Positions 237 to 62,513 of a stretch of 64,000 nucleotides of DNA are shown one piece after another. The stretch spans positions 36,090-100,089 of the forward strand of contig JARLHI010000040.1 of NCBI GenBank assembly GCA_031292355.1. The letters are read 5' to 3'. Each line of letters starts with the position of its first letter. The stretch's first letter is position 1. Source of the stretch: Candidatus Obscuribacterales bacterium (GTDB lineage: Bacteria > Cyanobacteriota > Vampirovibrionia > Obscuribacterales > Obscuribacteraceae). A model generated the notes under the pieces. It did not search any database. It was given only the letters and a program-made list of their open reading frames with translations, and was not told the DNA's origin. A program made the translations under genes and the position numbers.

Positions 237-248
237 CTTTGCCTAAAA
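237..248 (+). repeat. conserved intergenic 12-mer CTTTGCCTAAAA, site 1
   Basis: Exact 12-mer. Context TTGACTTTGCCTAAAAAGATATAATTG. Confidence 0.6.
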
Positions 249-404
249 AGATATAATTGAAAAAATGTCGGCAAGAATCGCCTCGCTTGGGAGACGAAAC
301 TTGCCGATTCTTTCAGACTCTGTCCGGCCCTTTGCTGTTTTTCTTCTTTTTGTTTTCGAAGGTTTTGGCGACACCGAGAACGGTTTCCGATTGTCTTTCT
401 CTGT

Positions 405-800
405 TTAGTCAGCAGTTGAAACCTTCAACTGCCACTTTTTGATCACCTGTGACGCGAGGTGATTAGCTCCGCCGCTGAAAGCACCGATGCCAAAGAACAA
501 CAGGCTAGGTTGAAAGAAAAATTGCCACGATATTGCTTGGTGCAGGTGTAACATTGTGCAAACGGCGAGGCAAAACCAGAACACAGATAGACACACAGCC
601 GAGACCAGAACGCTATTGCGCAAAGATGGCGACACCCAGGATCTGAAATTGTTGTTCCAGGTCCAGGTTAAATAACCAAGTGCGGCACCAAATAGCGAAG
701 CGAAGAAACATTGACTAGGAGCGCTCTGCATAAAGTAGCTGAAGAGACCGTAGCCGAGAGAGGCTGCAAGCATGCTTGCAAGCAAAGGGACAAACTTCAT
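405..800 (-). CDS. small polytopic membrane protein, unknown function
   Basis: ORF 405..845 re-started at the internal ATG (MKFVPLL) preceded by AAGAGGAA. Several hydrophobic helices. Confidence 0.5.
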   Translation of the reverse strand: MKFVPLLASMLAASLGYGLFSYFMQSAPSQCFFASLFGAALGYLTWTWNNNFRSWVSPSLRNSVLVSAVCLSVFWFCLAVCTMLHLHQAISWQFFFQPSLLFFGIGAFSGGANHLASQVIKKWQLKVSTAD

Positions 801-866
801 AGTTGGATTCCTCTTGTTGCGACTGCGAAACGCAATGTAGGGCACTGCATTTGGTGTTAGGTGAAT

Positions 867-1154
867 TTAGATTCCGATGATCTTCCTCTGTTCGCAGGTC
901 AGCTGGTCGATTACTGAGTCGCGATGGGTTCGGTAGATCGGGCGGGGCGAAGTAATTTCATAGGCTATTTCGCCGATGACGACGCAATCGATTTCGCGTG
1001 GCTCGATATTGCCGCCCCATACGTCTTTACCTTTGCCGACTGCAACTGCTACGGCCCTGTCATAAAAACGTCCGATATGCTTGACTCCCCCTTTGCCTTC
1101 GACTGTGTCCAGCGGTTCGAAGACATCATAGGCTTGAATGATTTCGGTGGCCAT
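867..1154 (-). CDS. hypothetical protein (95 aa)
   Basis: ATG preceded by GGAG about 7 nt upstream. Same strand as the flanking genes. No recognisable motif. Confidence 0.45.
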   Translation of the reverse strand: MATEIIQAYDVFEPLDTVEGKGGVKHIGRFYDRAVAVAVGKGKDVWGGNIEPREIDCVVIGEIAYEITSPRPIYRTHRDSVIDQLTCEQRKIIGI

Positions 1155-1442
1155 AAGGAGACTCCATCATTTGAGTGGTTCCTGGCGTAGATTTGGTAAC
1201 TGGTATAACTGGTGGTTTTTTTTTAGAGGCTCGGATGGAGAAGAGAAAAGACGAATTGACAACTTCAAGCTAGGCTGTAAATAGCGGCGATTGCAAGCAG
1301 TCTTATCGTTTCTAACTCGAATACTGCTAGCTGACGAGACACCGGCACGGCAATTGTCGCAAAAACTGGTATGTGGCATCGTATTTTCGCTAATGATAAT
1401 GATATTGAATGGCAGCATCAGTTGAGCTGAGAGGGCGCCTTG

Positions 1443-2240
1443 CTAAGCCACTTTGCCAGAGCCACTCTTTGTACGCTTAGAAATATTGTTCATGCTCGCT
1501 TTCAAAGCCGCCATCAGATCAATAGCCTGTGTCGGTGCTGTCACTTTCGGTTGTTTCAAGGTGGTACCTTTTAACTTTGCAGCTATCAGCTTTTTTAGAG
1601 CAGCTTGATATTTGTCTTTGAATTTCTTTGGTTCAAACGTTGAAGTCATCGCCCCAATCAACGAACTGGCCATCTTTTTTTCTTGTGCTGAAATCGATAC
1701 TGAAGATTTAGGAGCATCTTCCATCGATTTAATTTCGTCTGCATAAAGCAAAGTTTGAAGCATCAAAGTCTTGCCCATTGGCCGCAAAGCGCACAACCGC
1801 TCTTTATTGCGGAAGGCGATAGTGGCTATTCCTGCCATGTTTTTGGACGACAATGCGTCGACCAACAGTCTATAAGGTTTAAGCCCAGCCTTATCTACTT
1901 CTAAATAGTAAGTCGAGTCGTAGTAGATGGGGTCAATTTCTTGCAATTCCACAAAATTAGACACGTCTATAGTGTGCTTGCTTGGCAGTGGTAGTTGTTC
2001 AAAATCTGCGGCTGTCAACTCAATGTACTCGTTTTTCGCGTACTCAAAGCCTTTGACGATTTCTTCCCATTCTACGTTTCGCTTACAATGCGGGCAATAT
2101 CGCAACTCTTTAATTCGCGTGTCGCACTTTTTATGCAGTTGATGGAAGTTGACACCGTGACTCTCGGTGGCTGTGTGTAGCTTTACCGGAATGCTCACCA
2201 TGCCGAAGCTAATAACGCCAGTCCACATCGATCTGCCCAT
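1443..2240 (-). CDS. ku: Ku (non-homologous end joining DNA-end-binding protein)
   Basis: N-terminus MGRSMWTGVISFGMVSIPVKLHTAT matches the bacterial Ku signature (…WKG.ISFGLV.IPVKL..A.). Start re-placed at the ATG after GAAAAAGGAGGAAACTTT. No LigD gene in the window. Confidence 0.85.
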   Translation of the reverse strand: MGRSMWTGVISFGMVSIPVKLHTATESHGVNFHQLHKKCDTRIKELRYCPHCKRNVEWEEIVKGFEYAKNEYIELTAADFEQLPLPSKHTIDVSNFVELQEIDPIYYDSTYYLEVDKAGLKPYRLLVDALSSKNMAGIATIAFRNKERLCALRPMGKTLMLQTLLYADEIKSMEDAPKSSVSISAQEKKMASSLIGAMTSTFEPKKFKDKYQAALKKLIAAKLKGTTLKQPKVTAPTQAIDLMAALKASMNNISKRTKSGSGKVA

Positions 2241-2265
2241 AAAGTTTCCTCCTTTTTCAATTCGC

Positions 2266-2996: not shown

Positions 2997-4241
2997 TTGA
3001 TGATGTCTTCACCGCCAGCCTTAACAGGGCTATATTTATTGCGCCCAAACACAGGAGCGATGCGAAAACTCGCTCTTGGTAGCGCGACTACAATCGCCAC
3101 GCTGATGTGTATTCCGGATGCCGTCGGCATCATACCTGTGGTCCCGGATCCGCTCGCCTGGTGCATCCGCATTACTGGGCTCTGGCTTTCAGCTTTTATT
3201 TTGTGGGCTTTTGGTTTTATCGCCACTCTTTATTTTGCACGTTTTGCTGGTGGTGGTATTTTGATCAGTGCCAAAGGCATCAAATTCTCGCGCTTTGGCA
3301 AGGTTGTGGAATGGAAGAACATCAAAGCATTGACGCTGGACACACAGCCGTTATTCTCTCTAGCTTTCGGTTTGGCTGGAACAGCAAGACGATTACTCGT
3401 TTTTGAGGAGAAATCAGACAAAGCGAGTGGCAAGAAAAAGCTTGTGCCGCATCCAGTGCCTTCCTTTCAATTCTCGCCAGAGGAATTTACTTCGCTCTTT
3501 GCATACATTTGCGACAATGCGTTGCACTTTGTGCCGCATTCCACCGAAGCCTATATTTTTCAGCAAGAACAAAGTCAATTCTTACGATCGTCAGGAAAAC
3601 GTGCGGCAACTCTGAGAAAGGTCTTGTCGGTAATTATCGCCATTGGTCTCGTATTGTTTCTAGGACGGAAAGCCAGTCTTAACTATTTTTTCAATCAAGG
3701 CACGGTTAGTTTTCGACATGAAAATTATGCCGCCGCAATTAAGGATTTTCAAACGGCAACGAAAATAGATCAGACATTTGCCGCAGCTTGGGATCAACTT
3801 GCGCGTTCGGAATTTAGACGTGGAGACTCGCTCAAAGCCGAGCAACACTGGCAGCGAGCCCTGCAAATGAAGCCAGACTTGGTCGAAGCGAAAGTTGGAC
3901 TCTCTAACATTTTGATGAGTCGGGGCGAATACAAACAAGCCGAATCACTCCTTGAGCAATGTGCTCAGTTAGCTCCGCATAACTTTGCGGTCTATCTGAA
4001 TCAGGCGGTTCTCTACCAAAAGTTGGGACAGATCGATAATTCCAGAGAGCTTCTTAGCACTGTGCTTCACGAAGCGAGCAATGATCCGGATTCGCTTGCC
4101 AAAGCAGCCAGAATCTACGATGAAATTGGCGATCGAGCTGTGGCACTTGTGGTGCTTAAACAGGCCTTGAATATCGCTCCTCAAAATCGCATAGCCCTGT
4201 CTTTGATGGCTCAATTGAAGAACGAGCGTGGTGCACAATGA
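2997..4241 (+). CDS. membrane-anchored TPR-repeat protein
   Basis: N-terminal TM helices, then C-terminal TPR-like repeats (AWDQLARSEFRRGD…, …LNQAVLYQKLGQ…). The true start may be the internal ATG near 3060 (MRKLALG). Confidence 0.6.
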   Translation: MMMSSPPALTGLYLLRPNTGAMRKLALGSATTIATLMCIPDAVGIIPVVPDPLAWCIRITGLWLSAFILWAFGFIATLYFARFAGGGILISAKGIKFSRFGKVVEWKNIKALTLDTQPLFSLAFGLAGTARRLLVFEEKSDKASGKKKLVPHPVPSFQFSPEEFTSLFAYICDNALHFVPHSTEAYIFQQEQSQFLRSSGKRAATLRKVLSVIIAIGLVLFLGRKASLNYFFNQGTVSFRHENYAAAIKDFQTATKIDQTFAAAWDQLARSEFRRGDSLKAEQHWQRALQMKPDLVEAKVGLSNILMSRGEYKQAESLLEQCAQLAPHNFAVYLNQAVLYQKLGQIDNSRELLSTVLHEASNDPDSLAKAARIYDEIGDRAVALVVLKQALNIAPQNRIALSLMAQLKNERGAQ

Positions 4242-5439: not shown

Positions 5440-5676
5440 ATGGAATCGGAATCCGTTATTGGAGAACTTCTCTCGTCAACAAGAGAAATTTGCCGTCGAT
5501 ATCTACTGATTTTCCTCATTGGCGCAATCGTTGTGCCTCTCGTCTGCGGCGGCATCGAGATCCATGCAGGAGGTCCGTTCTGGCTGGGAGTGAAGTGGGG
5601 CCTTTCCGGATGGCTGTATGTTGCATTTGTCGTGTACTCGTTCGCCATGTTTAATGCCTCTCGTGGTTACAACTAG
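5440..5676 (+). CDS. small membrane protein (78 aa), hypothetical
   Basis: ATG preceded by AAAGGAAAGGG. Two hydrophobic helices. Confidence 0.35.
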   Translation: MESESVIGELLSSTREICRRYLLIFLIGAIVVPLVCGGIEIHAGGPFWLGVKWGLSGWLYVAFVVYSFAMFNASRGYN

Positions 5677-5836: not shown

Positions 5837-5848
5837 CTTTGCCTAAAA
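5837..5848 (+). repeat. conserved intergenic 12-mer, site 2
   Basis: Exact 12-mer. Context CAACTTTGCCTAAAAGAG. Confidence 0.6.
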
Positions 5849-5949: not shown

Positions 5950-6183
5950 ATGGCTGACATTATTATCAATCCAGAAAAAACAGCCAGCACAGAAGCTGTG
6001 TCTCATTCTTTTTCGCCGGCTCAGAGCGAGGGTTACGCCAGTGGCGGTGCCTTCAAAATAGCTGAATCTACCGCCGCCACGCTTCCACTTTTTGTAATTT
6101 GTCCTGATGGCAACGTTGCAGGAACCGCTACCACTAAAGCAGAAATAATCAAGCTTAACGGACAGTGTCGCGAAAAGGGTTGA
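5950..6183 (+). CDS. small hypothetical protein
   Basis: ORF 5917..6183 with a plausible ATG at MADIIINPEK after GAGG. About 100 bp downstream of an occurrence of the conserved 12-mer. Confidence 0.3.
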   Translation: MADIIINPEKTASTEAVSHSFSPAQSEGYASGGAFKIAESTAATLPLFVICPDGNVAGTATTKAEIIKLNGQCREKG

Positions 6184-10001: not shown

Positions 10002-10139
10002 GTGATCCCACTGTTGCTATTTCTAGCAATTCTAGCGGAACATCGACTGTCGTTGTTGTTCTCTATCGTTTTAGGCAAAGTTGCGTATAAAAACTTGAGA
10101 CAGAAGATTGGCTCCGTCTCAAGCAGTCACCGTGCAATG

Positions 10140-11039
10140 CTATTTCTTGCGCTGCTCCACAAAAAGTGGATTGATGCGCAGTCGTGGTGTTGGGCGTGGA
10201 TACTGGATTACCTGGGCGTCGGGCAGATTGTCAGGATTGAAGTCCAACTGAAATGCGCCGAAAGACAGGGCATAAGCCAGCTCAGACGCAGTCAACAGAT
10301 GCTGGATGGTTGCTTCCGCAGTGACCAGATCCTGGTCTGCTGTGATGTCGGCTATCTCCATTAAGGGCAACGGTCGACCCAGGTCGTGGATGGCGTCCTG
10401 GATAAACTCGTAGCGGGTAACCCAGATCATCTGCCTGAAACTTTGCAAATTGAGTGGGAAACCAGAACCGCCGGCAAAAAGAAGACCCCAGGCAAACGTG
10501 CGGTTGGGGCACAAATTGATTCCGGCAAAGACTTCTTCGGCTGCGCCGTTTGCATTGTCTTGAGCGCTGAGAAAAACTCTCAGTATGTCCATTCCCTCGA
10601 CCTTGGACCAGCGACTTAACTGGCGTTTGAGGGCGCTTACAGCTCCGTCGACCAGACGTGGCTGAATGGACTCACGCGCTTCGGATTCTTCCGGTGTCGG
10701 TGCGGCGCGTGCGCTTATCTGCTGCCAGGTTTGAACGAGCGTTTGGGCCAATGTGGTGTCATCAGCTTGACTTATGGTTTTGAGGAAACTCTGTAAGTCG
10801 CTCAGCATGAGCCTGATAGGTTCGCGGCAGGTGAGGCGTCCGCGTGTGCGAGTCATTTGCTCATGCAACCATGGTGTGAGAATGGCGCTGAGAGCGATTG
10901 CATTTGTGATTTTGCCCTGATTGCCTTCAGCAAAATTTTCATGACTGAGGCTGTAAGTGGCAAGGGTCGTATCGGCGGCGATAGCGGTGGGAAAAAGGCG
11001 AACCTTCCGTGTTGGCGCTCGGTTCGATTTACGGGACAT
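10140..11039 (-). CDS. hypothetical protein (299 aa)
   Basis: Long ORF on the same strand as its neighbours. No recognisable motif. Confidence 0.5.
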   Translation of the reverse strand: MSRKSNRAPTRKVRLFPTAIAADTTLATYSLSHENFAEGNQGKITNAIALSAILTPWLHEQMTRTRGRLTCREPIRLMLSDLQSFLKTISQADDTTLAQTLVQTWQQISARAAPTPEESEARESIQPRLVDGAVSALKRQLSRWSKVEGMDILRVFLSAQDNANGAAEEVFAGINLCPNRTFAWGLLFAGGSGFPLNLQSFRQMIWVTRYEFIQDAIHDLGRPLPLMEIADITADQDLVTAEATIQHLLTASELAYALSFGAFQLDFNPDNLPDAQVIQYPRPTPRLRINPLFVEQRKK

Positions 11040-11164
11040 TGGGGTATTCCTGTGTGCTCGCTGTTAAAAATTTCCTTGTGAAGTCTTGCAACTCTGTCTC
11101 TTGGGGTGGTGGTTAGAGTGGCTTGAGACAGGAGAACAGGGTCTGTCTCAAGCCATTACGGTAC

Positions 11165-11992
11165 TTAGAGCGGGCAGGCATCCTCCGGCCAGAGCTCTTC
11201 AGCCTTCAGCTGGCACAGCCTGGCACGCTCCGTGTGGATGTCGCGTTTCAGTTTCCAGAGAAATGCTCGATTTGGATCCTCGGCAAAACGCTTGAGACCC
11301 TCGTTGACCAGTCTTTCCGCTTGATCGAGCTTGCCGAGCGCGATCAGATGCCAACCGGTCTGGGTCCAGGAAGCAATTCTCTCTTTATCGCCTGCGTCAT
11401 TGAGCTCGCGAGCAAGTTTGAGTCCCCGCAGTGCCCGCTTCAACGCCGTTTCGCGGTCGCCAAACCGGGCGTACATGACGCTCAGATTGGTGAGATTGCC
11501 GCTTAGGGAAGACAAGTCGCCCTGGCGTTCGATGACGACGATTTGCTTCTCGTACCAGTTGAGCGCCTCCTGGCGGCGTCGTTGGAGGTTCTTCGAGCGC
11601 GCTTTGGAGAAGAAGCAGATGCCCCAGAGGTTTTCGTACGCTTCAGCGAGATCCGCACTAGCCGGTGCAAACTTTTCGAAGAGCCTGGCCGCCTCGATGA
11701 GCAGCGTACGCGCCTGCCAGTCTTTCTTCTCTTCTCGCAACTTTTTCGCCTTTTCGACGAGCATCTGCGCTCCGAGAAAGTCTGGGCCCCAGTAAGTCGC
11801 GCGGCCGGAAGGGATTTCCTTGCCGTCGACGATTCGGTACAGCTGCACCACGCCGCTGGTCTTGGGCGGCGGATTCCATTCCACAGCAGGCGTATCGCCG
11901 ATTGCGAAATCCTGCTTCAGCACTTCGGTGCCGTTGAACGTGGCCCTGATGGTCACGGGCTTCGAGATTGGTTTTTCGTAGTTCATGCGCAT
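11165..11992 (-). CDS. hypothetical TPR-like helical-repeat protein
   Basis: ORF 11165..12028 with a probable ATG at MRMNYEK after TGAGGA. C-terminal half has TPR-like repeats (AEAYENLWGICFF…, LSVMYARFGD…). Confidence 0.5.
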   Translation of the reverse strand: MRMNYEKPISKPVTIRATFNGTEVLKQDFAIGDTPAVEWNPPPKTSGVVQLYRIVDGKEIPSGRATYWGPDFLGAQMLVEKAKKLREEKKDWQARTLLIEAARLFEKFAPASADLAEAYENLWGICFFSKARSKNLQRRRQEALNWYEKQIVVIERQGDLSSLSGNLTNLSVMYARFGDRETALKRALRGLKLARELNDAGDKERIASWTQTGWHLIALGKLDQAERLVNEGLKRFAEDPNRAFLWKLKRDIHTERARLCQLKAEELWPEDACPL

Positions 11993-43131: not shown

Positions 43132-43226
43132 ATTTGGCTCCATCAGTGTCATTGAGAATTGGTGATTGTCTGCAAGGAATTTGCAGACTCGATCACATTG
43201 GATACGCACGAAAGTCAAGCAGGCTT

Positions 43227-44399: not shown

Positions 44400-44408
44400 T
44401 GATGCACC

Positions 44409-46712: not shown

Positions 46713-46824
46713 TAAGGTTTGATGGACTGAATTCCAGGCAGGGTCTCAACCGGACCCTACCAGGCTAGACTTGAGCCCTCATCGGGTTTTCATTGAGACT
46801 GACCTGGAAATCAGAGCGAAAATT

Positions 46825-47865: not shown

Positions 47866-48313
47866 TCTCCATTGAGTTGAAGCGGTTGACAGTTAAAGAG
47901 TTGCTCTAGCCCCGCCCAATACATCTGGCACCAGTCACCACTATCACCAAACCAAAAGCGCAAACGACGTCGCTTAGACCAGAAGTGCTAAGAGACGATG
48001 TAAGTGATTGGTGATAAGCGCTGAGTAGTAAGTTTTTCTGCTGCGAGTAAGTATGTGGGGAGTACCTTCACCCTACAATTCTTATATGCGCAGATGCCAA
48101 GAACTTTGCGCACCTGCAACAAACTTTGGGTGAATCAGTTCGCGCTACGTTGATGAGTACAAAACTTAAACACATCAACATTTAGATACGAAATAGTGTC
48201 ATCGATGTGGCAAGGCTATTTATGCGGCTTTTCTGTGAAAAACGAAAGAGATTATAAACAGCATTGGTATGATAAAATGACGGCGCCAAGTTTAAAAATA
48301 AAGAAAAACGAAA

Positions 48314-51710: not shown

Positions 51711-51953
51711 TAGCGGCAACCAATTGAGTAACTGACTAACCCGTAGGTATAGCTCAAAAGAAAGCTTTTATAGATGTACTTCGATAATATCACTATTGAG
51801 CTTTGGTAACTGGAAATAACTGTTGGAATTTCATTTGTCCTTTTCGGCAAAGTCGCATCTATAAAATAGACAGTAGCGTAGTCGGACTTTTACCACGCTA
51901 CTGTCTATCAGAAAGTAAGAGTTTGAAAGTTACACAGAGTCAGTCTATGCGCA

Positions 51954-52259
51954 TTACGACTTGAGTTTCTCCTGCGCCCGCTGGTATTCCTTTTGTGCAG
52001 CGTTCTCGATGAAACTGAGCTCCGCCCAAACAGCAAAGTTCGGACCATCTTTCATTGTCTGCACTAGACGCAGGAGCCGTCGAGCCGACTTCCTCAGCTC
52101 AACATTATCGATCGCCCGGACGTCATACGCAATGGCACGACAGGCGGTGAGGGCCACTTGGAGGTACTTATCGACCTCCATCAAGACGTCTTGTGCGCGG
52201 CGCCGGTCTTCCATTGCTGCAACAGCAGATCGCGCTTTTAGATTTTTGTTGGTATTCAT
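51954..52259 (-). CDS. small hypothetical protein (101 aa)
   Basis: ORF 51954..52592 trimmed to MNTNKN after GAGGAAAGGA. The N-terminal part of the long ORF overlaps the upstream small gene. Confidence 0.5.
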   Translation of the reverse strand: MNTNKNLKARSAVAAMEDRRRAQDVLMEVDKYLQVALTACRAIAYDVRAIDNVELRKSARRLLRLVQTMKDGPNFAVWAELSFIENAAQKEYQRAQEKLKS

Positions 52260-52273
52260 GATGATTCCTTTCC

Positions 52274-52480
52274 TCAGTAAGAACGCTTGCGTGCCTGTAT
52301 GCGGGGGCCGCCGCCGATGAAAACGGTAGCCTTTTTGTCCGTGGAGCCTGGTCCGGTCGGGTGGGCTGCAACGTCTAGACGACGTTTGTCCGGGGCCAAG
52401 AATGACAGCAAGCAGAGGACGAACAAGAGTACGGCGATAATGGCTAGGAGTACGATGATGGCTACAAAGTGGGGGGACAT
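52274..52480 (-). CDS. small membrane protein (68 aa)
   Basis: ATG after AAAGGAAA. One hydrophobic helix (FVAIIVLLAIIAVLLFVLCLL). Confidence 0.45.
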   Translation of the reverse strand: MSPHFVAIIVLLAIIAVLLFVLCLLSFLAPDKRRLDVAAHPTGPGSTDKKATVFIGGGPRIQARKRSY

Positions 52481-52533
52481 GTGTTGTTTCCTTTCTTTTC
52501 TTCTCTTTTCTTTCGTGAAATGCGGGGCGCAGT

Positions 52534-53055
52534 TTATAAAACCAGTCCGGCTCCAAATGGAAACGTTGCCGACTGGGCGGCACTGGGGGCAAGAGCTAGG
52601 GCACGCTGCATGATGTTCTTTAACTCCGCCCGCAACTGAGGAGTGATATTTACTCTCCGGCGCCCAGCTGCAAGAGATTCTTTGGCACCGGCGATTGTCT
52701 CATAGGCACCCAGCACATCCAGTTGCCAAAGCTCCTTGTTGACACCTTGGAACTTTTTGCCGTATCGGGCCAAATACTGGGTCATCCGGTGAGCCGAGGC
52801 TTCGAGCATAGCTATGCGATTGGCAAACTCCTGGTCAACGTAGGATACCAGGGCAACGTTTTTTGCATAGAGAAGCATGGCGTAGTCTAATTGGGTCGGA
52901 TGGCAGCCGTTTTTCAGCTGCTCTGCATACTCCGCCTGACGAGTCAGCAAACGCTTTATATTGTCCGACAATTGGCGCTGGAATGCGATCAATTCCTTGA
53001 CCTCCTCCGAGAATGCCTGTCTTCTTGGATCTTGGTAGGTGTATCTGTTGCTCAT
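52534..53055 (-). CDS. hypothetical protein (173 aa)
   Basis: ORF 52534..53085 re-started at MSNRYTYQ after GGAGAG. Helical. First gene of a three-gene small-protein operon. Confidence 0.5.
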   Translation of the reverse strand: MSNRYTYQDPRRQAFSEEVKELIAFQRQLSDNIKRLLTRQAEYAEQLKNGCHPTQLDYAMLLYAKNVALVSYVDQEFANRIAMLEASAHRMTQYLARYGKKFQGVNKELWQLDVLGAYETIAGAKESLAAGRRRVNITPQLRAELKNIMQRALALAPSAAQSATFPFGAGLVL

Positions 53056-53517
53056 TTTTCTCTCCATTTGTTTTTGAAGGTGCACAAGTACACACCATGC
53101 AACTTACATGGTCGAGTCGAGTTTTGATTGCGATGGTGTTTAGGACTGCTGCCCAATGAAAATCTCATTCATCGCTAGGCTGCAGAAAAGCGCTGAGGCG
53201 CCCGAGTTTGATTTAAAAGAAAGATGCATTGAATGGCTTGTGGCTAACTAGAACTCCAGAAAAAAGAAATGAGACGATATGCCTCAATCCTAATAACGTC
53301 CTTGTGTCAGCTCAAGCTATTTTGCCTCGAAGAGAGCAAGAACAAGTTTAAATTGACTCTTTTACTTGAAAACCACTTTTACTAGCCAAACTGGATCGCT
53401 TCCGGTATCAACTTTTGGCCAGAAGAGAATCCTCAAGAAAAACGCGGAGGAAAACGTGGAGGAAGGCATGGTGCAGTTGTGCAATAATTGCCATCCATAA
53501 AAGCGGTCCCATTGCTC

Positions 53518-54933
53518 ATGATACCGATCATTCTTTCTGATGATGCGAATATTGCTCTCTACAAACGCATTGCGTCAGCTGTGGAGGAAGGAATTAGCCA
53601 GGCGAAACTCAGCTCTGGAACCAAAATGCCTTCCAGCAGAGAGCTTGCGGAATCTTTAAGTGTATCTCGCGGCAGCGTTGTCAGAGCCTACGAGGAGTTG
53701 ATTCACAGCGGTCACCTTTTTGCGCGGGCTGGAGGCCAAACTTTCGTTGCCGAAAAGTCCAGTCATAAGCAGACTCTGTCGAACGGTGATAGTGCGGAAG
53801 ACGACTCTGAGCAGAATCCAGAAAATGTGAGCGAGTTCGCTAAACGCTTGTCGAAATTCAGTTGGTCCTTAGGTTCTGCAGCAGACATGCCATTGTTGAA
53901 TTATGGTGCACCACCTGAATGGGCCTTACCTGTTTCTAAATGGAAATATGCTCTAAATAAAACGTGCGCTGATCTTAGTCCAGCTTCCATCGAATATGCT
54001 CCGCCACCTTTTGGTGATTTTTGGGTGCGAGAAGTGCTCTGTGAATTTCTTCGTCGGCGCAAGGGCGTTCTAGCCAATGTAGCGCAAACAATTGTCTTTG
54101 CGGATTCGGAGAGCAGTCTGGTCTATATAGCGCGTTTGCTCATAAACGTGGGTGATGTCGTTCTAGTGGAAAACCCGTGTCACGCTGGCGCTCGGGATAC
54201 ATTCCGCACACATGGTGCTCACGTGATAACGGTACCGATTGATGAAGATGGAATCAGAACAGACATCGTTGAAGAATATCTAAATAATGGTTCAGTGAAA
54301 TTGATTTATGTGTCTCCGTCCTTTCAAGACCCAGTCGGTGTCAATATGTCTTTAGCGCGCCGACAGCAGTTGTTGAAACTGGCAAATGCTCATAACGTCT
54401 GCATCGTGGAAGATGCATGGGATAGCGACTATTCTTACATCAGCCCTAATTTTCCACCGCTTTTCACGCTTAGCCAAAATTCAAATGTTTTTTTCATTTA
54501 CAGCTTTTGGAAGCTGCTGTATCCGCTTTCTATGGTTGGTTGTTTGTTAATACCGCCTCGGTACGCGGCAACGTTTGCAGCAGCAAAAGTGCAATCGAAT
54601 AGCATCAACCCTGTGATTGAGCATCGCACTCTTGCTGATTTCATCGAAAGCGGCAACCTAGAAAAACACATAAAGCTGACACGAAAGCAATTAACCATCA
54701 AGCGACAGACCATGATTGCTTTGCTTGTTGCTCTTTTCGGCAAAGATGTGCAAATAAGAAAACGTAGCTCAGCCTTCTGGCTCGTAGTGGAATTTAGTGA
54801 AGAGTTGACGCAAGGAGATATTGAAAGGATGGCGGCGGACAACAATATTGTCTTGTTCTCGACAGACTGCTACTACTTAGATCCGCGTAAAATTCCCGCT
54901 CGCGAATACATGGTTCCTTTCGCTGATTACTAA
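53518..54933 (+). CDS. MocR/GabR-type regulator (GntR HTH fused to class I aminotransferase-like domain)
   Basis: N-terminal winged HTH (…KMPSSRELAESLSVSRGSVVRAYEEL…), then a ~350-aa PLP-fold domain. Start ATG at 53518 or 53488. Confidence 0.7.
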   Translation: MIPIILSDDANIALYKRIASAVEEGISQAKLSSGTKMPSSRELAESLSVSRGSVVRAYEELIHSGHLFARAGGQTFVAEKSSHKQTLSNGDSAEDDSEQNPENVSEFAKRLSKFSWSLGSAADMPLLNYGAPPEWALPVSKWKYALNKTCADLSPASIEYAPPPFGDFWVREVLCEFLRRRKGVLANVAQTIVFADSESSLVYIARLLINVGDVVLVENPCHAGARDTFRTHGAHVITVPIDEDGIRTDIVEEYLNNGSVKLIYVSPSFQDPVGVNMSLARRQQLLKLANAHNVCIVEDAWDSDYSYISPNFPPLFTLSQNSNVFFIYSFWKLLYPLSMVGCLLIPPRYAATFAAAKVQSNSINPVIEHRTLADFIESGNLEKHIKLTRKQLTIKRQTMIALLVALFGKDVQIRKRSSAFWLVVEFSEELTQGDIERMAADNNIVLFSTDCYYLDPRKIPAREYMVPFADY

Positions 54934-55609: not shown

Positions 55610-58585
55610 ATGGCTTCTTCGTTTGCCAGGCGTCTTCTTTTGCCGCTGATGGCCGTGTTCGCGATGCTCACCCTCTCACCCATGGCCGCTTATGCCGCCG
55701 CCAGTGTGTGGGTGCCCGACTTCAATTCCGGTCAGACCGTCTACGTCGACCCTGCTCTGAGCAATGATTCGCAGTATCCAGTGCGCCTGGATGGTCTCGA
55801 ATCGAAGCTTCAGGATGCGGGGCAAAAGGAAGGAGTGCACTACTTCTTCATTTACGAGAAGTCTGTGCCCGAGGCCCAGATTCCTCCGCAATACGGCAAG
55901 CAGTACGCCGAATGGCAGCTCGATGACGTCGCCAATCGCTGGGCCGGTAAGGCAGGATTCTCTTCGAAGGATTCGGTCGTGATTCTGCTGGTGCGTTCGG
56001 CGAAGAACCCCAACGCTTTCAGCTATGCTGCCGACTCGGGCAGTCAGTGGCAGCAGGCGGGGCTGACCAAGTCCTACTACACCAATGTCCTTGCGGGCAT
56101 CAAGAAGTCCTATCTGCCCGGCGACCCCTCGGGTTTCGCTCTGGCGGTCGCTCAGGACAGCTCGTCCCACATCGGCGCCGTGAACGCGCAGGTTGCTTCT
56201 GCGGCCGCTCACAAGGCCTTCGTCTCGCATCTGCCGCTCTACATCGGCATCTTCCTGGCACTTGCTCTCCTCGCCGGCTACAGCATCTTCATGCTGGTGC
56301 GGTTCGGCAAGGCCAAGAAGCTTCTCGCCGACCTGCTCGCCGACCTCCAGCCCAAGTTCGATTCCTTCAATCAAGTCAGCATGAAGATCCAGAATTCCTA
56401 TATGGGTTTTCTTTCTGACCAGCGCGGTTGGCAGGGCAAGCTCACGGGCGTGACGCAGAAGAAGTTTTCGGCTGCGGTCGCTTCCTATTCTGATCTGACG
56501 ATTCAACGTCAGGTGGCCCTCGACCTGCTCGCAGCCGGTCAGAAGGCTCTGGAATCTGCGTCCATGTTCAAGGTCGGCGCTCTCACGACCGCTTACGATA
56601 ACCTGACCTCGACTCCTGTCGTCATCACCGGCGACGAGATCGAGTTCAAGAAGATCACCGATGCTTTCGGCGGTCTGGTCTCCAAGAAGACGTTCACGCC
56701 CGAGCAGCTGTTCGCCAATTTGAACAGCCTGTTCACCACCAGCAACTCGCTCCTTTCGGAAATCTACGATGCTTTCGAGTCGGCCAACGCCAACAAGACT
56801 GCCATCGCCGATGCCCTCAAGGCGGCGTCTGAACTGCAGCCGGAAATCGAGGCGGTCGGCCTTTCGTTCGCCCCGTATTTGACGGCTTACAACGATCTCG
56901 TCGCTCGTGCAGGTACCACCGTCGCCGGCATCAGCTCCGACCCTGTCAGCGCCGTTTCTGGTTCCACCAGTCTGCGTTCTGACGCCGAGAAGTTGAAGGC
57001 CTCCATCCAACAGGCCGTCTCTTTGAAGAAGGACGTGTTGACGGTTTCGACCGCCATCGCGGATGCGCGCACTGAAATCGCTGCCAAACGTGCTGTGGCT
57101 GTCGATTTCACATTCGTTTCGTCGGCTGATCCTGCCACCTTCGCGTTCGCCGAAGAGGGGTACAACCCCGATACGGTGCTCGCACAGGCTGATGGTTCGC
57201 TGAAGTCGTTCAGCGATGCGCTTGGGGCTGGTCGGGTCGAGGAAGCGCAGTCCGCCAAGGCGGCGGCTCTTGCTTCGGTGACTGCGGCTCTGGCGCTCGT
57301 CGCGTCATCGCTTGCGGCAAAGAAGGCAGTAGAAGAGAAAGTGCCGGTTCTTTCGGCGACATTCTCCGACTATGCTGCTTTGTCCAAGGTGGGTGTCCTG
57401 TATAAGGCGCAGTCATTCGTTGGTGCGGCGGCTATCCTCTCTGCTCTCGAGTCGCTCACCGAACTCGAGAACAATGGGGCGATGCTGTCTGCTTCGGCTG
57501 CGAAGAACCCCAAGCTCTCGGATGTCACCTTGAGCAAGGTGACGACTCTGAGCGCGCGCATCGCAGATGTGGTTTCGGCGTACAAAGGACCGTCTTTCGA
57601 TGGTGCTCGGGCGCAGGCGCTGCATGACACGGTCGCTCAGGAGTTCGAGGGTGCACAAGACGCCATCGCAGCCGATGAAAAGGTGTTCAAGTCGGCCAGC
57701 GACGCCGTTGCTTCGTTCCGTGCGGCTTATAGCCAGGCGGTCAACGTCGTCAACGACTCACGTGTCGGCCAGCATCGTCGCGACTCGTTGAGCACTCTCA
57801 ACGGCACGCTCACTTCTTTGACCGCTGCGGTGCAGTTCACCGTCGGCGCTTCGAAGGATTGGTCGACGGTTGAAGCCGATGCCGTCGCCAGCAAGTCCCA
57901 GGTCGATTCGCTCAAGGCGGCTGCCCAGGGCGATATTGATGCGGCCGTCGCCGATGCTAAGGCGCTGGCCGAATTGCAGGACGCCGAGCGCGAGCTCGCG
58001 GGTTACGGCAGCCGTCGTTACGTGCGTACGATCAACAATTACAGCTTCGGCGGTAATGTGTTCTTCGATGCTTCGCGTCCGACGTCGCAACTGTCACTCG
58101 CCCAACAGTACTACCATGCGCGCAACTATTCGGCGATGCGTCAGGCTATCGCCGAGATGCAGGAGGAAGCCTATCAGGCTGACACCTATGCATGGTGGTT
58201 GACCATGGAGTTGATGTCCGAGAGCAACAATGTCATGGCCCAGCGCTATGCGTATGAGCTCGGCTACCGTCAAGGTGGCTACGATTCTTGGTATGGCAAT
58301 CATATCGGATCGGGCATCGACTACAACCAGCCCTGGGAGCCGACTCCGGACACCAACTGGGAGCCCTCGCATGAGAGCGCTCATCTGGACCCGGATTATG
58401 TCGAACCGGCTCAGGGGCACAGCCGTGACGACGACGATGACACCACGGGCAATGCCGGTGGAGGCACCGATCGTGGCTTTGGCGGCGGTGGCAACGACGA
58501 CGACAACAACAACGTCTCGGACGACCGTGACGACACACCTGCTGACACCGGCAATTCTGGCGGTGGCACTGACGACTCGTTCTAA
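55610..58585 (+). CDS. TPM-domain (TLP18.3/Psb32/MOLO-1 family) membrane protein with ~700-aa Ala-rich helical insertion and Gly/Asp-rich C-terminal tail
   Basis: Signal peptide (…MAAYAAASVW). The N-terminal ~170 aa align block-wise with the TPM domain of YgcG-like proteins. TM helix (LPLYIGIFLALALLAGYSIFMLV). C-terminal GNAGGGTDRGFGGGGNDDD…GNSGGGTDDSF mirrors the Gly-rich tails of TPM proteins. ATG after GGAGG (the ORF track GTG at 55499 is unlikely). Confidence 0.6.
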   Translation: MASSFARRLLLPLMAVFAMLTLSPMAAYAAASVWVPDFNSGQTVYVDPALSNDSQYPVRLDGLESKLQDAGQKEGVHYFFIYEKSVPEAQIPPQYGKQYAEWQLDDVANRWAGKAGFSSKDSVVILLVRSAKNPNAFSYAADSGSQWQQAGLTKSYYTNVLAGIKKSYLPGDPSGFALAVAQDSSSHIGAVNAQVASAAAHKAFVSHLPLYIGIFLALALLAGYSIFMLVRFGKAKKLLADLLADLQPKFDSFNQVSMKIQNSYMGFLSDQRGWQGKLTGVTQKKFSAAVASYSDLTIQRQVALDLLAAGQKALESASMFKVGALTTAYDNLTSTPVVITGDEIEFKKITDAFGGLVSKKTFTPEQLFANLNSLFTTSNSLLSEIYDAFESANANKTAIADALKAASELQPEIEAVGLSFAPYLTAYNDLVARAGTTVAGISSDPVSAVSGSTSLRSDAEKLKASIQQAVSLKKDVLTVSTAIADARTEIAAKRAVAVDFTFVSSADPATFAFAEEGYNPDTVLAQADGSLKSFSDALGAGRVEEAQSAKAAALASVTAALALVASSLAAKKAVEEKVPVLSATFSDYAALSKVGVLYKAQSFVGAAAILSALESLTELENNGAMLSASAAKNPKLSDVTLSKVTTLSARIADVVSAYKGPSFDGARAQALHDTVAQEFEGAQDAIAADEKVFKSASDAVASFRAAYSQAVNVVNDSRVGQHRRDSLSTLNGTLTSLTAAVQFTVGASKDWSTVEADAVASKSQVDSLKAAAQGDIDAAVADAKALAELQDAERELAGYGSRRYVRTINNYSFGGNVFFDASRPTSQLSLAQQYYHARNYSAMRQAIAEMQEEAYQADTYAWWLTMELMSESNNVMAQRYAYELGYRQGGYDSWYGNHIGSGIDYNQPWEPTPDTNWEPSHESAHLDPDYVEPAQGHSRDDDDDTTGNAGGGTDRGFGGGGNDDDNNNVSDDRDDTPADTGNSGGGTDDSF

Positions 58586-58734
58586 CAAATTCTGCAATCC
58601 GTCCTAAGCGGTGCAGTCAAGTTCCGTAGCAACTTGAATTTCGCGTATTGGAAAGTGCCAGGCCCGGCTGGCGCTTTCTTCACAGGTGTGTCACATGAGT
58701 GGTGCATCCTCAACTTTAGAACCAGGAGATCAAT

Positions 58735-59469
58735 ATGTCTGTTGTTATCGAAGTAGTTGGTGTCGTCGCCGTTGTCGGTGGTCTGGCCTACTGGCAGATC
58801 CCGGCTGTCCGTCAGCTTTTCCGCATCAACCGCGATAAAGTCATCGCGGCGAGCTCGACTCCTCTGGAGCGCATCACCGACAACGTCAATCAAGCCATCG
58901 CCAAGCTGCCGGCTCAGCGCGCGCTGGTCGCCCAGCAGATGACGGCGGCGCAGCGGGCTCAGACCAACGCCCAGAACAAGCGTGACGAGGTCGAGGATCT
59001 GTTCAAGCAGGTGAATGTGGCGATCGGCGCGAATGCCACCGCGGCGACCATCACCACGCTGAAGCAGCGCTGGCTGACGGCCAAGGGTGCAGTCGTCGAC
59101 CTGGACAAGGTGTCCGAGGAGGCGCACAAGAGTGCCGACGACGCGCAGGCCGAACTCGAGGATCTGCTCACGTTGATCCAGCAGAGCAAGGCCGGCGCCG
59201 AGAAGCTGAAGAGCGATGCCAACTTGACCGCGATTCTGCAGCAGTCGACCCAGTTCCGCACGCAGGTCAACGACCTGAAGTCGGGGCTCGGGGCGAATGC
59301 CGCCGATGTGCAGGAAGTGCAGGACGCGCTGTCGAATGCTCGCAACGCCAACGAACTCTCCAAGGGTTCGGCTGCCGATCGCGAGATGGCCGATATCGCC
59401 AAGAAGACCCAGGCAAGCGCCGCCGATGACGCCTTCGCCGCGGAGCTCGCCGCGCGCGCCGGCAAGTAA
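58735..59469 (+). CDS. PspA/IM30 (Vipp1/ESCRT-III-like) family protein, paralog 1, with N-terminal hydrophobic extension
   Basis: Helical heptad sequence aligns with PspA (LERITDNVNQAIAKLPAQRALVAQQMTAAQRAQ…). Extra N-terminal MSVVIEVVGVVAVVGGLAYW. ATG after CAGGAG. Confidence 0.6.
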   Translation: MSVVIEVVGVVAVVGGLAYWQIPAVRQLFRINRDKVIAASSTPLERITDNVNQAIAKLPAQRALVAQQMTAAQRAQTNAQNKRDEVEDLFKQVNVAIGANATAATITTLKQRWLTAKGAVVDLDKVSEEAHKSADDAQAELEDLLTLIQQSKAGAEKLKSDANLTAILQQSTQFRTQVNDLKSGLGANAADVQEVQDALSNARNANELSKGSAADREMADIAKKTQASAADDAFAAELAARAGK

Positions 59470-59492
59470 GCACCATAAGCGGTGCTTGGACA

Positions 59493-59531
59493 AGCAGTGA
59501 TCCTGCTTTAATGAGGTAAGCAAAACTTACC
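59493..59531 (+). repeat. conserved double-hairpin 3' element, copy 1
   Basis: AGCAG-TGATC-CTGCT and GGTAAG-CAAAA-CTTACC hairpins 7 nt apart. A nearly identical copy lies after paralog 2. Confidence 0.6.
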
Positions 59532-59540
59532 TATAGACTC

Positions 59541-59589
59541 ACCAGCTCGACAGAGCCACAAGCTTCGTCGGGCTGGTGTTGTTTTTCTG
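59541..59589 (+). terminator. rho-independent terminator after pspA paralog 1
   Basis: About 10-bp stem CCAGCTCGAC/GTCGGGCTGG (one mismatch), followed by TGTTGTTTTTCTG. Confidence 0.55.
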
Positions 59590-59680
59590 CGTTCCAACAG
59601 ACTGTTCCAACCCTCTTTCTCATCGCGGCAACTTCAGCTCAACCGAGTTGAAGAAATCGAACCATCATCAGGAGTTACAC

Positions 59681-60361
59681 ATGAGCCTCGCTTCTTCTTT
59701 CCTTCAGGCTTTCCGCATCAACGGCGAAAAGGTCGTCTCGCATGGCTCGACCCCGCTCGAGCGCATCGAAGACAACGTCAAGCAGGCCGAAGCTCACCTG
59801 CCGCAGCAGCGTGCGCTGGTCGCCCAGGAGATGACGGCCGCGCAACGTGCGTCCACGAATGCGGATAACAAGCGTGCCGAAGTCGAATCGCTGTTCAAGG
59901 AAGTGCAGACTGCGATGTCCGCCTCGGCATCAGCCGCCACCGTCACCACGCTGAAGCAGCGCTGGCTGACGGCCAAGGGCGAGGTCGAAGCGCTCGACAA
60001 GATCGCTCTCGATGCCCATACGGCCGCCGACGAAGCGCAGCATGACCTCGAAGGGCTGCTCTCGTTGATCCAGCAGAGCGAACAGGGCGCCCAGAAGCTC
60101 AAGGACGACGCCAATCTGGCCGAGACCCTGAAGCACTCGACCGAGCTGCGTCAGCAGGTCAACGACCTGAAGGCCGGCCTCGGTGCGAACGCCGCCGATG
60201 TCGCCGCCGTCGAAGACGGTCTGGCCAACGCGCGCAACGCTGCCGAACTCTCCAAGGGTTCGGCTGCCGACCGCGAGATGGCTGCCATTCACGAGAAGAC
60301 CCAGGCGAGCGCCGCCGACGATGCCTTCGCCGCGGAACTCGCCGCGCGCGCCGGCAAGTAA
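59681..60361 (+). CDS. PspA/IM30 family protein, paralog 2
   Basis: About 65% identical to paralog 1 over the helical core. Identical C-terminal KGSAADREMA…AADDAFAAELAARAGK. ATG after CAGGAG (ORF track start 59576 trimmed). Confidence 0.6.
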   Translation: MSLASSFLQAFRINGEKVVSHGSTPLERIEDNVKQAEAHLPQQRALVAQEMTAAQRASTNADNKRAEVESLFKEVQTAMSASASAATVTTLKQRWLTAKGEVEALDKIALDAHTAADEAQHDLEGLLSLIQQSEQGAQKLKDDANLAETLKHSTELRQQVNDLKAGLGANAADVAAVEDGLANARNAAELSKGSAADREMAAIHEKTQASAADDAFAAELAARAGK

Positions 60362-60387: not shown

Positions 60388-60426
60388 AGCAGTGATCCTG
60401 CTGTAACGCGGTAAGCAAAACTTACC
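60388..60426 (+). repeat. conserved double-hairpin 3' element, copy 2
   Basis: Same AGCAGTGATCCTGCT…GGTAAGCAAAACTTACC arrangement as copy 1. Confidence 0.6.
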
Positions 60427-60560
60427 CGAAGTGGGCACCGGTCTGGTTGAGTCAAAAGCTTGATTTGACCGGTGTTCCTTTCAACTGAAGTTTTTTTGGG
60501 GTGTGTTGAATATTATCGTGTGCATGTTGCATGCGATATCTCAAACTGTGAGGTACTTAT

Positions 60561-61658
60561 ATGCTAGTTCAAATGGCTATCGGCGACGCTTACGGCGCCG
60601 GTTTCGAATACGCCAGTGCCGAATTCGTCCTGGCAAATCACAGGCTTACGATGTATGTGCAGCATCCCAAGCATAAGCTGGTGCCAGGCGTTTACACGGA
60701 CGACACTCAAATGTCGATCGCCAACGCTGAGGTCATTCTCGCCGGGATACTTTCTCGGGAAGCCTTCGCTCAAGCTTATGTCGATTGCTTCAAGCGCGAT
60801 CAACGCGAGGGCTATGCAAGTGGCTTCTACAACTTTCTGTGTAGCGTCAAGGACGGTGAGGAATTCTTGTCACTGATGAAGCCTATCAGCGACAAGAGCG
60901 GTAGTGCCATGAGGGCTTTGCCGTTTGGAATTTATCCCGACATAGAAGTTGTGATTGCTCTTGCTACTTTGCAGTCGACGATCACCCACAATAGTTTCCA
61001 CGGCATCAACGCGGCAGTGGCTGCTGCTTTGATGTCACACTATTTTCTCTATCAGCTTGGTCCCAAAAGCGAACTCGGTGCTTTCATCGAAAAGCACGTG
61101 CCGGGTACGTGGGCGGAACCATATACGATACCTGTCGCCCAAAAGGGCTGGATGTCCGTTCGTTCGGCCATCACGGCTATCATGGGCAACGATTCAATGA
61201 CTGAGATTTTGCGCGCCTCTGTTGCCGTTACGGGTGATGTGGATACGGTTGCCGCACTCGCTCTGGGGGCAGCGGCGGCTTGCAGCGAGGTCAAACAAGA
61301 CTTGCCCGAGTTCCTTGAAAGGGATCTGGAGAATGGCGCTTACGGGCGAGATTTTCTCGCTGACTTAGACGCCAAGTTGATGGCCAAAATGGCAGATCTC
61401 AAAGCCGAAAAAGCTGCGTCACAGCAAGTCGCAGTCAGCGGTCCGCGAATCCTCGTGGTGCAGTCGCCAGAACAGTGGACGGGAGCGATAAACAGTCAGT
61501 CGTTTCTGGAAATTCCGACTGCGCTGGATGTGCAGAAAGAAGAAAATGCCTGGTTTGCAGCTGGAGGTGATTCCAGTGGCAAATCTTTCGTCGAGCATTT
61601 GCTCGCTCTGGGCGCGACGCGGCTGACCGTCGAAGTCTGGAATATCAACTACCAATGA
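60561..61658 (+). CDS. ADP-ribosylglycohydrolase (ARH/DraG family) with ~85-aa C-terminal extension
   Basis: N-terminal GDAYGAGFEY and YTDDTQMS metal-site motifs of ARH. C-terminal ~85 aa not assignable. Confidence 0.7.
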   Translation: MLVQMAIGDAYGAGFEYASAEFVLANHRLTMYVQHPKHKLVPGVYTDDTQMSIANAEVILAGILSREAFAQAYVDCFKRDQREGYASGFYNFLCSVKDGEEFLSLMKPISDKSGSAMRALPFGIYPDIEVVIALATLQSTITHNSFHGINAAVAAALMSHYFLYQLGPKSELGAFIEKHVPGTWAEPYTIPVAQKGWMSVRSAITAIMGNDSMTEILRASVAVTGDVDTVAALALGAAAACSEVKQDLPEFLERDLENGAYGRDFLADLDAKLMAKMADLKAEKAASQQVAVSGPRILVVQSPEQWTGAINSQSFLEIPTALDVQKEENAWFAAGGDSSGKSFVEHLLALGATRLTVEVWNINYQ

Positions 61659-61742
61659 TTGAAGTGCAGGCACTCTCATCTCGTGAGTGCCTGCTAGTCA
61701 AATCATGTGCCTGCGTTATTTAACTAGCCGGAGTAATTGAGA

Positions 61743-62405
61743 ATGAATGAACTGCAATCGAGTTTCCAAGGATGGCCGTCTGCTGTCTGGGCTCTCGCTG
61801 TGATCGTTATTGCGGTCTTAGTCTATCGCTATGCAATCAGCACCGCCGCGCAGCGTTTTCAAGCCAAGGAAGCGAACGCGGTTCGCGAACAGGCACGGGA
61901 TGCCTTGCGTCGCGAGGATAGACTGAAGCAAGAAGAAAGAAGTGCGGCAACGACGGCTACAAATCAACAGCAAAGGCGCGCAGATGAAGCGCAAGAGCGG
62001 GAGGCTCGCGCTGCTCTACTGGCGGCTCTTAGAGAGGAAGCCAAGGCAGACGTTGCTGGCAACGCACGTTGCGCCGAGGAAACGAAAAGAATACTCGCTG
62101 AAGCCGATGTTTACCTTGTGAAAATCTGCCGCTACTATGTGGTGCGCGACGAAGAGATCGATGAAAACGACGAAGACCAGGAAGACCCGCAAATCAACCT
62201 GGGCAACATGAAGGGCGACATCTCCGACAGTTATGAAAGCGCTTTGACATATTTTGCACAAGCGCAAGAGTTCGTAGCTCAAGGTGTGTACCTCGCGGCG
62301 AAGTGGAAAGCTGAAAACTGCTTGCTGGAAGCTAGATACGCTGCCGACAGAATCGCCAATCTTGACTCTCGTGCATGGAACGAAATTCAGGCTGCGGTGC
62401 GCTGA
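61743..62405 (+). CDS. membrane-anchored coiled-coil protein, hypothetical
   Basis: One N-terminal TM (VWALAVIVIAVLVY), then a charged R/E/A-rich helical region. ATG at 61743 (ORF track TTG start at 61737). Confidence 0.5.
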   Translation: MNELQSSFQGWPSAVWALAVIVIAVLVYRYAISTAAQRFQAKEANAVREQARDALRREDRLKQEERSAATTATNQQQRRADEAQEREARAALLAALREEAKADVAGNARCAEETKRILAEADVYLVKICRYYVVRDEEIDENDEDQEDPQINLGNMKGDISDSYESALTYFAQAQEFVAQGVYLAAKWKAENCLLEARYAADRIANLDSRAWNEIQAAVR

Positions 62406-62501
62406 TCTCTGAATCATAATTGAGGCAATCTGCGCGACGGGGATGGGCACGCCATTGCGTACTTGTCAACGTCGCGCAAATTGTGTTTTATTTTGAAAAG
62501 T

Positions 62502-62513
62502 CTTTGCCTAAAA
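62502..62513 (+). repeat. conserved intergenic 12-mer, site 4
   Basis: Exact 12-mer. Context AAAAGTCTTTGCCTAAAATAAT. Confidence 0.6.

Follow-up and report, generated by a model that had tools for sequence, protein, structure and literature searches.

We show that a recurrent 12-mer, CTTTGCCTAAAA, in a 64-kb window of the genome of a Candidatus Obscuribacterales bacterium (contig JARLHI010000040.1, positions 36,090 to 100,089; coordinates below count from the first nucleotide of this window) is the core of a ~20-nt "post-terminator box", which together with an intrinsic terminator forms a composite 3'-end signal and is co-oriented with the terminated gene. Comparisons made at the level of sequence, among sites within this genome and among related species, show the box to be a selected, terminator-linked 3'-end element. 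As to its role, we tentatively favor a factor-binding site that reinforces termination and insulates neighboring, especially convergent, genes.

The window contains five exact copies of CTTTGCCTAAAA, at 237 (+), 5837 (+), 10069 (−), 22490 (+), and 62502 (+), all of them intergenic, compared with a mean of 0.02 copies in 100 dinucleotide-preserving shuffles of the window, none of which reached five. When up to one mismatch is allowed, seven copies are observed versus 0.27 expected; the one-mismatch variant CTTTGCCGAAAA lies at 51841 (−) and 54734 (−). Within the intergenic DNA of the window, the box supplies both the top-ranked 9-mer and the top-ranked 10-mer. A preliminary description of this DNA had reported the four plus-strand copies as a short specific site, intergenic and far above chance, rather than a long repeat, and all of this is borne out. 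Its statement that all copies share one orientation does not hold, given the minus-strand copy at 10069 to 10080, and the flanks, which it called unrelated, are mostly so, except that those of 237 and 22490 have the 19-mer TTGACTTTGCCTAAAAAGA in common.

Contigs of the same organism from Logan lengthen the window by ~9 kb per side, giving 83 kb of this genome. These flanking contigs carry one further exact copy (L011:16963), CTTTGCCGAAAA at L014:719 and L014:6055, CTTTGCCCAAAA at L014:735, and CTTTGCCATAAA at L011:12867; a degenerate form of the box can be written as YRACTTTGCCKAAAA. Exact CTTTGCCNAAAA occurs 11 times in the 83 kb, and 10 of the 11 copies are intergenic though intergenic DNA makes up 17.8% of the sequence (P=3e-7), while coding DNA, 82% of the total, holds a single copy. 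The intergenic enrichment that the preliminary description proposed to check is present in these 83 kb, where the copies are not equally common inside genes.

What do these sites have in common beyond the 12-mer? The copies share one layout: a G+C-rich hairpin, a T-run, 5 to 10 nt (mode, 8), and the box, in this order. A T-run ends 5 to 10 nt upstream in 8 of the 10 intergenic exact CTTTGCCNAAAA copies of this genome but at only 4.8% of intergenic positions (P=1.2e-9). The hairpins just before the T-runs (T4 to T9), present at most copies, have free energies (dG) of −14 to −29 kcal/mol and are unlike in sequence between sites. They follow the stop codon of the gene on the box strand, indicating that they are ordinary intrinsic terminators, and such a G+C-rich hairpin with a T-run, 3' of a co-oriented gene, stands beside most boxes. 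Alignment of 22 sites shows a T-rich block of columns at −13 to −9 and yields an extended consensus of a T-run, ~6 nt, and YRA-CTTTGCC-K-AAAA-WRRTA (K = T/G). The sites and terminators in the window are as follows.

237 to 248, plus strand: exact box, atypical in being antisense to both neighbors, gene 405-800 (−) and ligD 1-107 (−).
269 to 306, minus strand: hairpin of the terminator of gene 405-800, its T-run being the A-run 260-265 of the plus strand; the reverse complement of box 237 lies 10 nt past this T-run.
5837 to 5848, plus strand: exact box in a tandem gap, 5 nt past a T9 run that lies 3' of the small gene 5440-5676 (+).
10069 to 10080, minus strand: exact box, 8 nt past the terminator T-run of gene 10140-11039 (−).
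10089 to 10123, minus strand: intrinsic terminator of box 10069, with hairpin 10094-10123 (dG, −15.7 kcal/mol) and T5 at 10089-10093.
22444 to 22481, plus strand: intrinsic terminator of box 22490, with hairpin 22444-22475 (dG, −14.1) and T6.
22490 to 22501, plus strand: exact box in a tandem gap of 497 nt, 8 nt past the T6 run that ends the terminator of gene 21722-22405 (+).
23875 to 23902, both strands: inverted variant pair CTTTGCTTTAAA-TGATA-TTTTAAGCAAt in a convergent gap, each arm ~9 to 10 nt past the T-run of its own strand.
27674 to 27685, plus strand: degenerate box TTTAGCCTAAAA in a convergent gap, 8 nt past the terminator tail TTTCTTTT of the fatty-acid hydroxylase gene 27038-27592 (+).
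51841 to 51852, minus strand: variant box CTTTGCCGAAAA, 10 nt past the T-run of a strong terminator (hairpin 51867-51907; dG, −25) of gene 51954-52592 (−).
54734 to 54745, minus strand: CTTTGCCGAAAA, antisense within the MocR-like gene 53488-54933; the only coding copy, without a convincing terminator and probably a chance or non-functional occurrence.
62502 to 62513, plus strand: exact box in a convergent gap, 7 nt past the T-rich terminator tail of gene 61737-62405 (+).
62502 to 62513, minus strand: reverse complement of this box, 4 nt past the terminator T-run of gene 62608-63654 (−).

The distribution of the box among gaps between genes is equally uneven. The gene calls in the window are partly our own, based on open reading frames (ORFs), and were cross-checked against the called genes of Logan and JGI loci. 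A census of the 83 kb gave the following counts.

Convergent gaps (10 gaps, 1.2 kb): 8 copies, in 7 gaps.
Tandem gaps (54 gaps, 8.2 kb): 5 copies.
Divergent gaps (11 gaps, 4.2 kb): 0 copies.

Box density is thus 6.6 per kb in convergent gaps versus 0.6 per kb in tandem gaps; the tandem gaps that it favors are those with a terminator. A position weight matrix (PWM) scan of 173 kb of the clade returned 12 convergent, 14 tandem, 1 divergent, and 3 coding matches, and the 23 divergent gaps across the clade hold one copy. Of the 14 intergenic exact copies at all clade loci, 13 point the same way as the gene upstream (12 of 13 when the small call over L035:6019 is counted as a gene), and 8 have a downstream gene on the other strand. 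In several convergent gaps only 12 to 40 nt, and in some only 12 to 15 nt, separate the box from the stop codon of the partner gene. A distribution rich in convergent gaps and nearly free of divergent ones is the reverse of what would be expected for a promoter or an activator site.

The relation of the box to promoters could be examined directly, since ortholog alignments expose the promoter of gene 5950-6183 (TTGATC-N17-TAAGAT), with its −35 element 41 nt past box 5837, and the downstream promoter at 10069 (−10 TAGAAT), 34 nt from the box. The box-promoter distance varies (41 versus 34 nt) and the distance to the T-run is constant, which again indicates a terminator-linked 3'-end element and not an mRNA promoter. 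A sigma70-type hexamer pair at 16 to 18 nt was found only at site 237, and the 22 aligned sites have no second block at a fixed distance. At 237, a near-consensus sigma70-like TTGCCT-N18-TATAAT at 228-257 (+) overlaps the box and would drive antisense transcription of gene 405-800. Its −35 element is the upstream TTTGCC half-repeat noticed in the preliminary description, which lies at 227-232; the TATAAT that was placed 13 nt downstream is in fact at 252-257, starting 4 nt after the 12-mer. The copy at 62502 does lie between convergent genes, and its location does argue against a simple mRNA promoter, as had been pointed out.

Other promoter-type candidates fared no better. For a sigma70-type promoter, fixed-register hexamers are lacking, with 0 copies in 11 divergent gaps and 8 in convergent ones. 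By-eye checks of the aligned sites revealed no consistent partner element for TTGCCT as −35 and TAAAAN as −10, nor for sigma54 −24/−12, extracytoplasmic function (ECF)-type AAC −35, Bacteroidetes −33/−7, or reverse-strand SigF TAGGC elements. Nor is there support for a small RNA (sRNA) or a small ORF past the box: the sites have nothing in common there, and some boxes stand only 12 to 40 nt before a convergent stop. The sRNA promoter element once proposed does not fit a box that is locked ~8 nt past the T-run, concentrated in convergent gaps, and absent from divergent ones; the downstream flanks are unrelated and sometimes leave 12 to 15 nt before a convergent stop, which also speaks against an sRNA. 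The suggested transcription-factor or nucleoid-protein site survives in part, in that a protein recognition site is preferred; a transcription-factor site in a promoter is unfitting, given the terminator-locked position, the convergent preference, and the absence from divergent gaps.

A promoter might nevertheless be coupled to the terminator itself: from a forward (T/G)AAAAT, or a reverse TAYYAT overlapping positions 12 to 17, transcripts (sense, antisense, or abortive) would begin just past the terminator, and termination would be disturbed by the bound polymerase. Coupling of promoters to terminators within 35 bp has been reported to be widespread (bioRxiv 10.64898/2026.08.19.745784), about half of the sites have TAAAAT/GAAAAT or the reverse TAYYAT, whose two middle positions vary (R/R) between orthologs, and TTGCCT-N18-TATAAT overlaps site 237. 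However, the −10-like reading applies to only about half of the sites, no second hexamer occurs at a fixed distance, and the 23 divergent gaps hold 0 to 1 copies, while most copies face a convergent gene that is sometimes 12 to 15 nt off. In the reported cases, the −10 adjoins the T-tract, transcription starts ~10 bp from where it terminates, and tandem gaps are the enriched class. Here a "TA" follows the T-run in many sites, but the T at −7 is absent in most and the conserved block begins 8 nt on; the enrichment is also the opposite, with 6.6 copies per kb in convergent versus 0.6 in tandem gaps. We consider this explanation improbable.

Is the box maintained in related species? Syntenic loci of relatives encode proteins 76 to 79% (Adk), 83 to 84% (ARH), and 63 to 64% (APH) identical to those of the window; the relatives are close, yet their spacers have already diverged by ~50%. 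At orthologous sites, 85% of the box columns are identical (92/108), in contrast to 48% in the remaining spacer (Fisher P=1.5e-14). The orthologs are listed below by window site.

237: L029:12634, CTCTGCCTAAAAAGATA, in the same orientation and with the arrangement kept.
5837: L029:9692, TTTTGCCGAAAA.
10069: L027:10380 and L029:5500, with stem, T-run, and box kept while loop and spacer vary.
27674: L036:4493, the canonical CTTTGCCGAAAA, 8 nt past a T-run.
62502: L031:4274 and L035:6019, with the box kept; lost in L032.
L011:16963 (flanking contig): L027:17759.

As read from these alignments, purifying selection has kept the box in the species of one Obscuribacterales clade. In 20 kb of a more distant relative (ARH, 65%) there is no box, which, together with the copy lost in L032, indicates that the element is confined to a narrow clade. 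A metagenome scan with the 19-mer TTGACTTTGCCTAAAAAGA returned nine single-copy, chance-level matches in unrelated contigs, a pattern too specific to gauge the distribution of the box. In the GTDB species set, the 322-amino-acid (aa) protein encoded downstream of 10069 had no match and Adk found only proteins 33 to 40% identical, from Atribacterota and similar groups, indicating that this set has no close representative of the organism. The adenylate kinase (Adk) and ADP-ribosylglycohydrolase (ARH) of the window are 100% identical to proteins that NCBI assigns to a metagenome-assembled Candidatus Obscuribacterales bacterium, and further homologues are cyanobacterial, which places this uncultured organism in the Melainabacteria/Vampirovibrionia. 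The window genes have Shine-Dalgarno sequences, and many lack a Pfam family; TCAAA recurs a few nucleotides before the Shine-Dalgarno sequence of several of them (for example, 1152−, 27016+, 50565−, and 53053−).

A DNA uptake sequence, or another self-recognition sequence that accumulates near terminators, was weighed too. Extrapolation from 11 copies per 83 kb gives a 12-mer with several hundred copies per genome, and known uptake sequences cluster in terminators (PMC1852404), so that the uptake or recognition sequence named in the preliminary description still stands as a candidate. It is a poor one, however, and we regard it as highly unlikely, since only 1 of the 11 exact copies falls in the coding 82% of the genome (P=3e-7), and the box lies outside stems, usually singly, at a fixed spacing and orientation to the T-run and never in the divergent gaps of this genome. 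Uptake sequences serving as terminator stems were rejected for the same position outside stems; inverted pairs occur in only three places, and only as the GCT/GCG variant.

These inverted pairs are palindromic variants of the box, found at 23875/23892 in the window and at L026:2575/2592 (2575-2603) and L014:3022/3039 (3022-3050) elsewhere. Their consensus is CTTTGC(T/G)nAAAA-N5-TTTTn(A/C)GCAAAG, with T or G instead of C at position 7. In convergent gaps, the pairs provide one arm per strand. The L014 pair (3022-3050) lies between two tandem genes, the second of which probably has its true start at ATG 3063, before a signal-peptide-like N-terminus. The palindromic variant might be a relative of the single box that binds a dimer or forms a hairpin. 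Integron attC sites were considered, in view of the resemblance of GCCTAAA to RYYYAAC, and rejected: a paired GTTRRRY is missing, and the genes, housekeeping genes among them, occupy both strands and keep their synteny between species. Rfam at the gathering threshold gave no match in the window, and no tRNAs were found there.

How could a box behind a terminator act? In the favored explanation, termination reinforced by a bound factor, a factor particular to this lineage would recognize the box as DNA; it could be a dedicated DNA-binding protein or else a promoter-like RNA polymerase trap. Once on the box, the factor would be placed at the front of a polymerase that has its active site on the T-run; the ~8-nt spacing puts the box at this leading edge, which is why a bound reinforcing factor is favored. 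The factor would then be a roadblock, holding the polymerase over the weak rU:dA hybrid and preventing read-through into the neighboring, often convergent, gene. For polymerases arriving from the other side, the A4 end of the box would present a T4 tract, so that one box might suffice for the two convergent genes. A single box does lie between the T-runs of two convergent terminators at 62502 and its orthologs.

Several points weigh against this roadblock explanation. The roadblock step is deduced purely from geometry, and the factor is postulated. Only ~40 to 50% of clear terminators have a box, meaning that termination does not require it. Site 237 and its ortholog are oriented the opposite way relative to the sole nearby terminator. 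The sample is small, with ~13 independent sites in one genome and ~30 in the clade, and the gene calls are partly home-made. Finally, the strong strand preference is at least as naturally explained by a signal acting in RNA.

In such an RNA-level explanation, the polymerase would often continue beyond the hairpin and its short T-run, and read-through RNA would carry the box as CUUUGCC(U/G)AAAA, to be bound by an endonuclease or RNA-binding protein and trimmed back to the hairpin, as in chloroplast and cyanobacterial 3'-end maturation, or marked for decay. The strict strand preference relative to the upstream gene fits this, as does the presence of a separate copy for each strand in the inverted pairs; the T-runs are short, often of 4 to 6 T, which makes read-through plausible, and the organism belongs to the cyanobacterial lineage. 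However, gaps with terminators on both strands can have a single copy (62502 and L031:4274), site 237 is antisense to both neighbors and conserved so, no associated RNA structure or Rfam match accompanies the box, and the box lies past the predicted termination point, so that most transcripts would be without it. We judge an RNA-level signal somewhat unlikely.

A site of the repetitive extragenic palindromic (REP) type was weighed as well, at which a nucleoid-associated protein or topoisomerase at gene ends would relieve supercoiling or organize the chromosome with no direct role in termination. The box is distributed as REP and bacterial interspersed mosaic elements (BIMEs) are, at 3' ends and in convergent gaps with divergent gaps spared, and its conservation fits a protein-sized footprint of ~20 bp. 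The tight 5- to 10-nt spacing to the T-run and the orientation rule are not predicted by a role of this kind, however, and the box is non-palindromic, with neighboring hairpins that are not conserved between sites. Such a site seems quite unlikely to us. For REP elements proper, the adjacent hairpins are unrelated in sequence and the box is not palindromic; the exception among the hairpins is two neighboring terminators, 10094-10123 (gene 10140-11039) and 11122-11152 (gene 11165-11992), which have the same stem (CTTGAGACAG/CTGTCTCAAG) and only the first of which is followed by a box.

Other repeated sequences were observed in the window. The sequence TTTTTG(T/C)(C/T)CATTTCGGG is conserved after the T-run of two more terminators, at 30099-30107 (−) and 30803-30811 (−); the copy upstream of the APH-like gene is kept in L027:1552 as TTTTTGTCATTTCGGCTATTGAATTTGAGTTAAACTGAC, and the sequence may represent either a promoter or a further post-terminator motif. 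The palindrome TCGCGCGA, often lengthened to CTCGCGCGAG, has six copies (16302, 25863, 26742, 30125, 35581, and 43579), four of them intergenic, and the copy at 30125 is part of a terminator, as its loop or stem. The G+C content is 0.56 to 0.60 at 32000-48000 and 56000-60000 versus 0.46 to 0.52 elsewhere in the window. The first of these regions holds a minus-strand cluster with short gaps, encoding Ser/Thr kinase-TPR, PP2C phosphatase, FHA, GlnX-like membrane, and PBP-like proteins, from which the box is absent. The longest stretch without a confidently called gene is 47866-49155 (1,290 nt), with overlapping ORFs of ~100 to 300 aa on both strands.

Intrinsic terminators are regarded as self-sufficient RNA signals. 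If the favored explanation is true, termination, or the insulation between neighboring genes, would in some bacteria include a sequence-specific component. A conserved, orientation-locked box behind the T-run in most convergent gaps would offer a way to test how cells avoid read-through and head-on collisions of polymerases. The box could also offer a compact, portable terminator enhancer, and it could mark the ends of transcription units for annotation in this uncultured sister lineage of cyanobacteria. No such post-terminator box turned up in our literature searches, and a search with the motif string gave only primers.

Among known systems, the nearest described are promoter-coupled terminators and uptake sequences in terminator stems, and both depart from the box in sequence logic, spacing, and gene context. 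In promoter-coupled terminators, a generic −10 hexamer adjoins the T-tract and transcription starts ~10 bp from where it terminates; tandem genes are the setting in which they are enriched (Fletcher et al., bioRxiv 10.64898/2026.08.19.745784). The likeness is that something bound modulates termination and couples neighboring transcription units; the box differs in being a specific 12- to 20-mer 8 nt past the T-run, without a consistent hexamer pair and enriched in convergent gaps. The DNA uptake sequences (DUS) of Neisseria and uptake signal sequences (USS) of Pasteurellaceae form terminator stems by the pairing of inverted copies; a genome has at least 1,000 of them, and coding DNA commonly contains them (PMC1852404). 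They and the box are alike as short, highly conserved, many-times-repeated oligomers tied to Rho-independent terminators. Unlike DUS and USS, the box takes no part in the stem, usually occurs singly and in a locked orientation, and is all but missing from coding DNA; against their ~1,000 or more copies per genome and frequent coding occurrences stand 11 copies of CTTTGCCNAAAA in 83 kb, one of them coding.

REP elements and BIMEs of enterobacteria are extragenic, lie at the 3' ends of transcription units and in convergent gaps, and do not occur in divergent promoter regions. They are presumed binding sites for gyrase and IHF, with effects on termination or mRNA stability, and REP is a conserved imperfect palindrome of 20 to 40 nt. 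The location of the box is the same, extragenic and at 3' ends or in convergent gaps, with 0 divergent copies in the 83-kb census and 1 in the clade PWM scan. Unlike in REP and BIME, the hairpins vary between sites, and conservation is limited to the non-palindromic box past the T-run.

Factor-dependent roadblock termination is familiar from eukaryotes and organelles, namely, from the Reb1, Nsi1, and TTF-I sites of RNA polymerase I, which have an upstream T-rich release element, and from mTERF. In geometry, the box would resemble the Reb1/Nsi1/TTF-I arrangement, in which a T-rich release element lies from a few nucleotides to ~15 bp upstream of an asymmetric factor site that acts in an orientation-dependent manner. 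We know of no bacterial equivalent of Reb1/TTF-I/mTERF roadblock terminators. It is conceivable, though doubtful, that this clade has a two-part terminator, consisting of a hairpin with its T-run and a factor on CTTTGCC(T/G)AAAA 8 nt further on, that would act as a polar or bidirectional roadblock insulating convergent genes and would be a bacterial counterpart of Reb1/TTF-I/mTERF termination.

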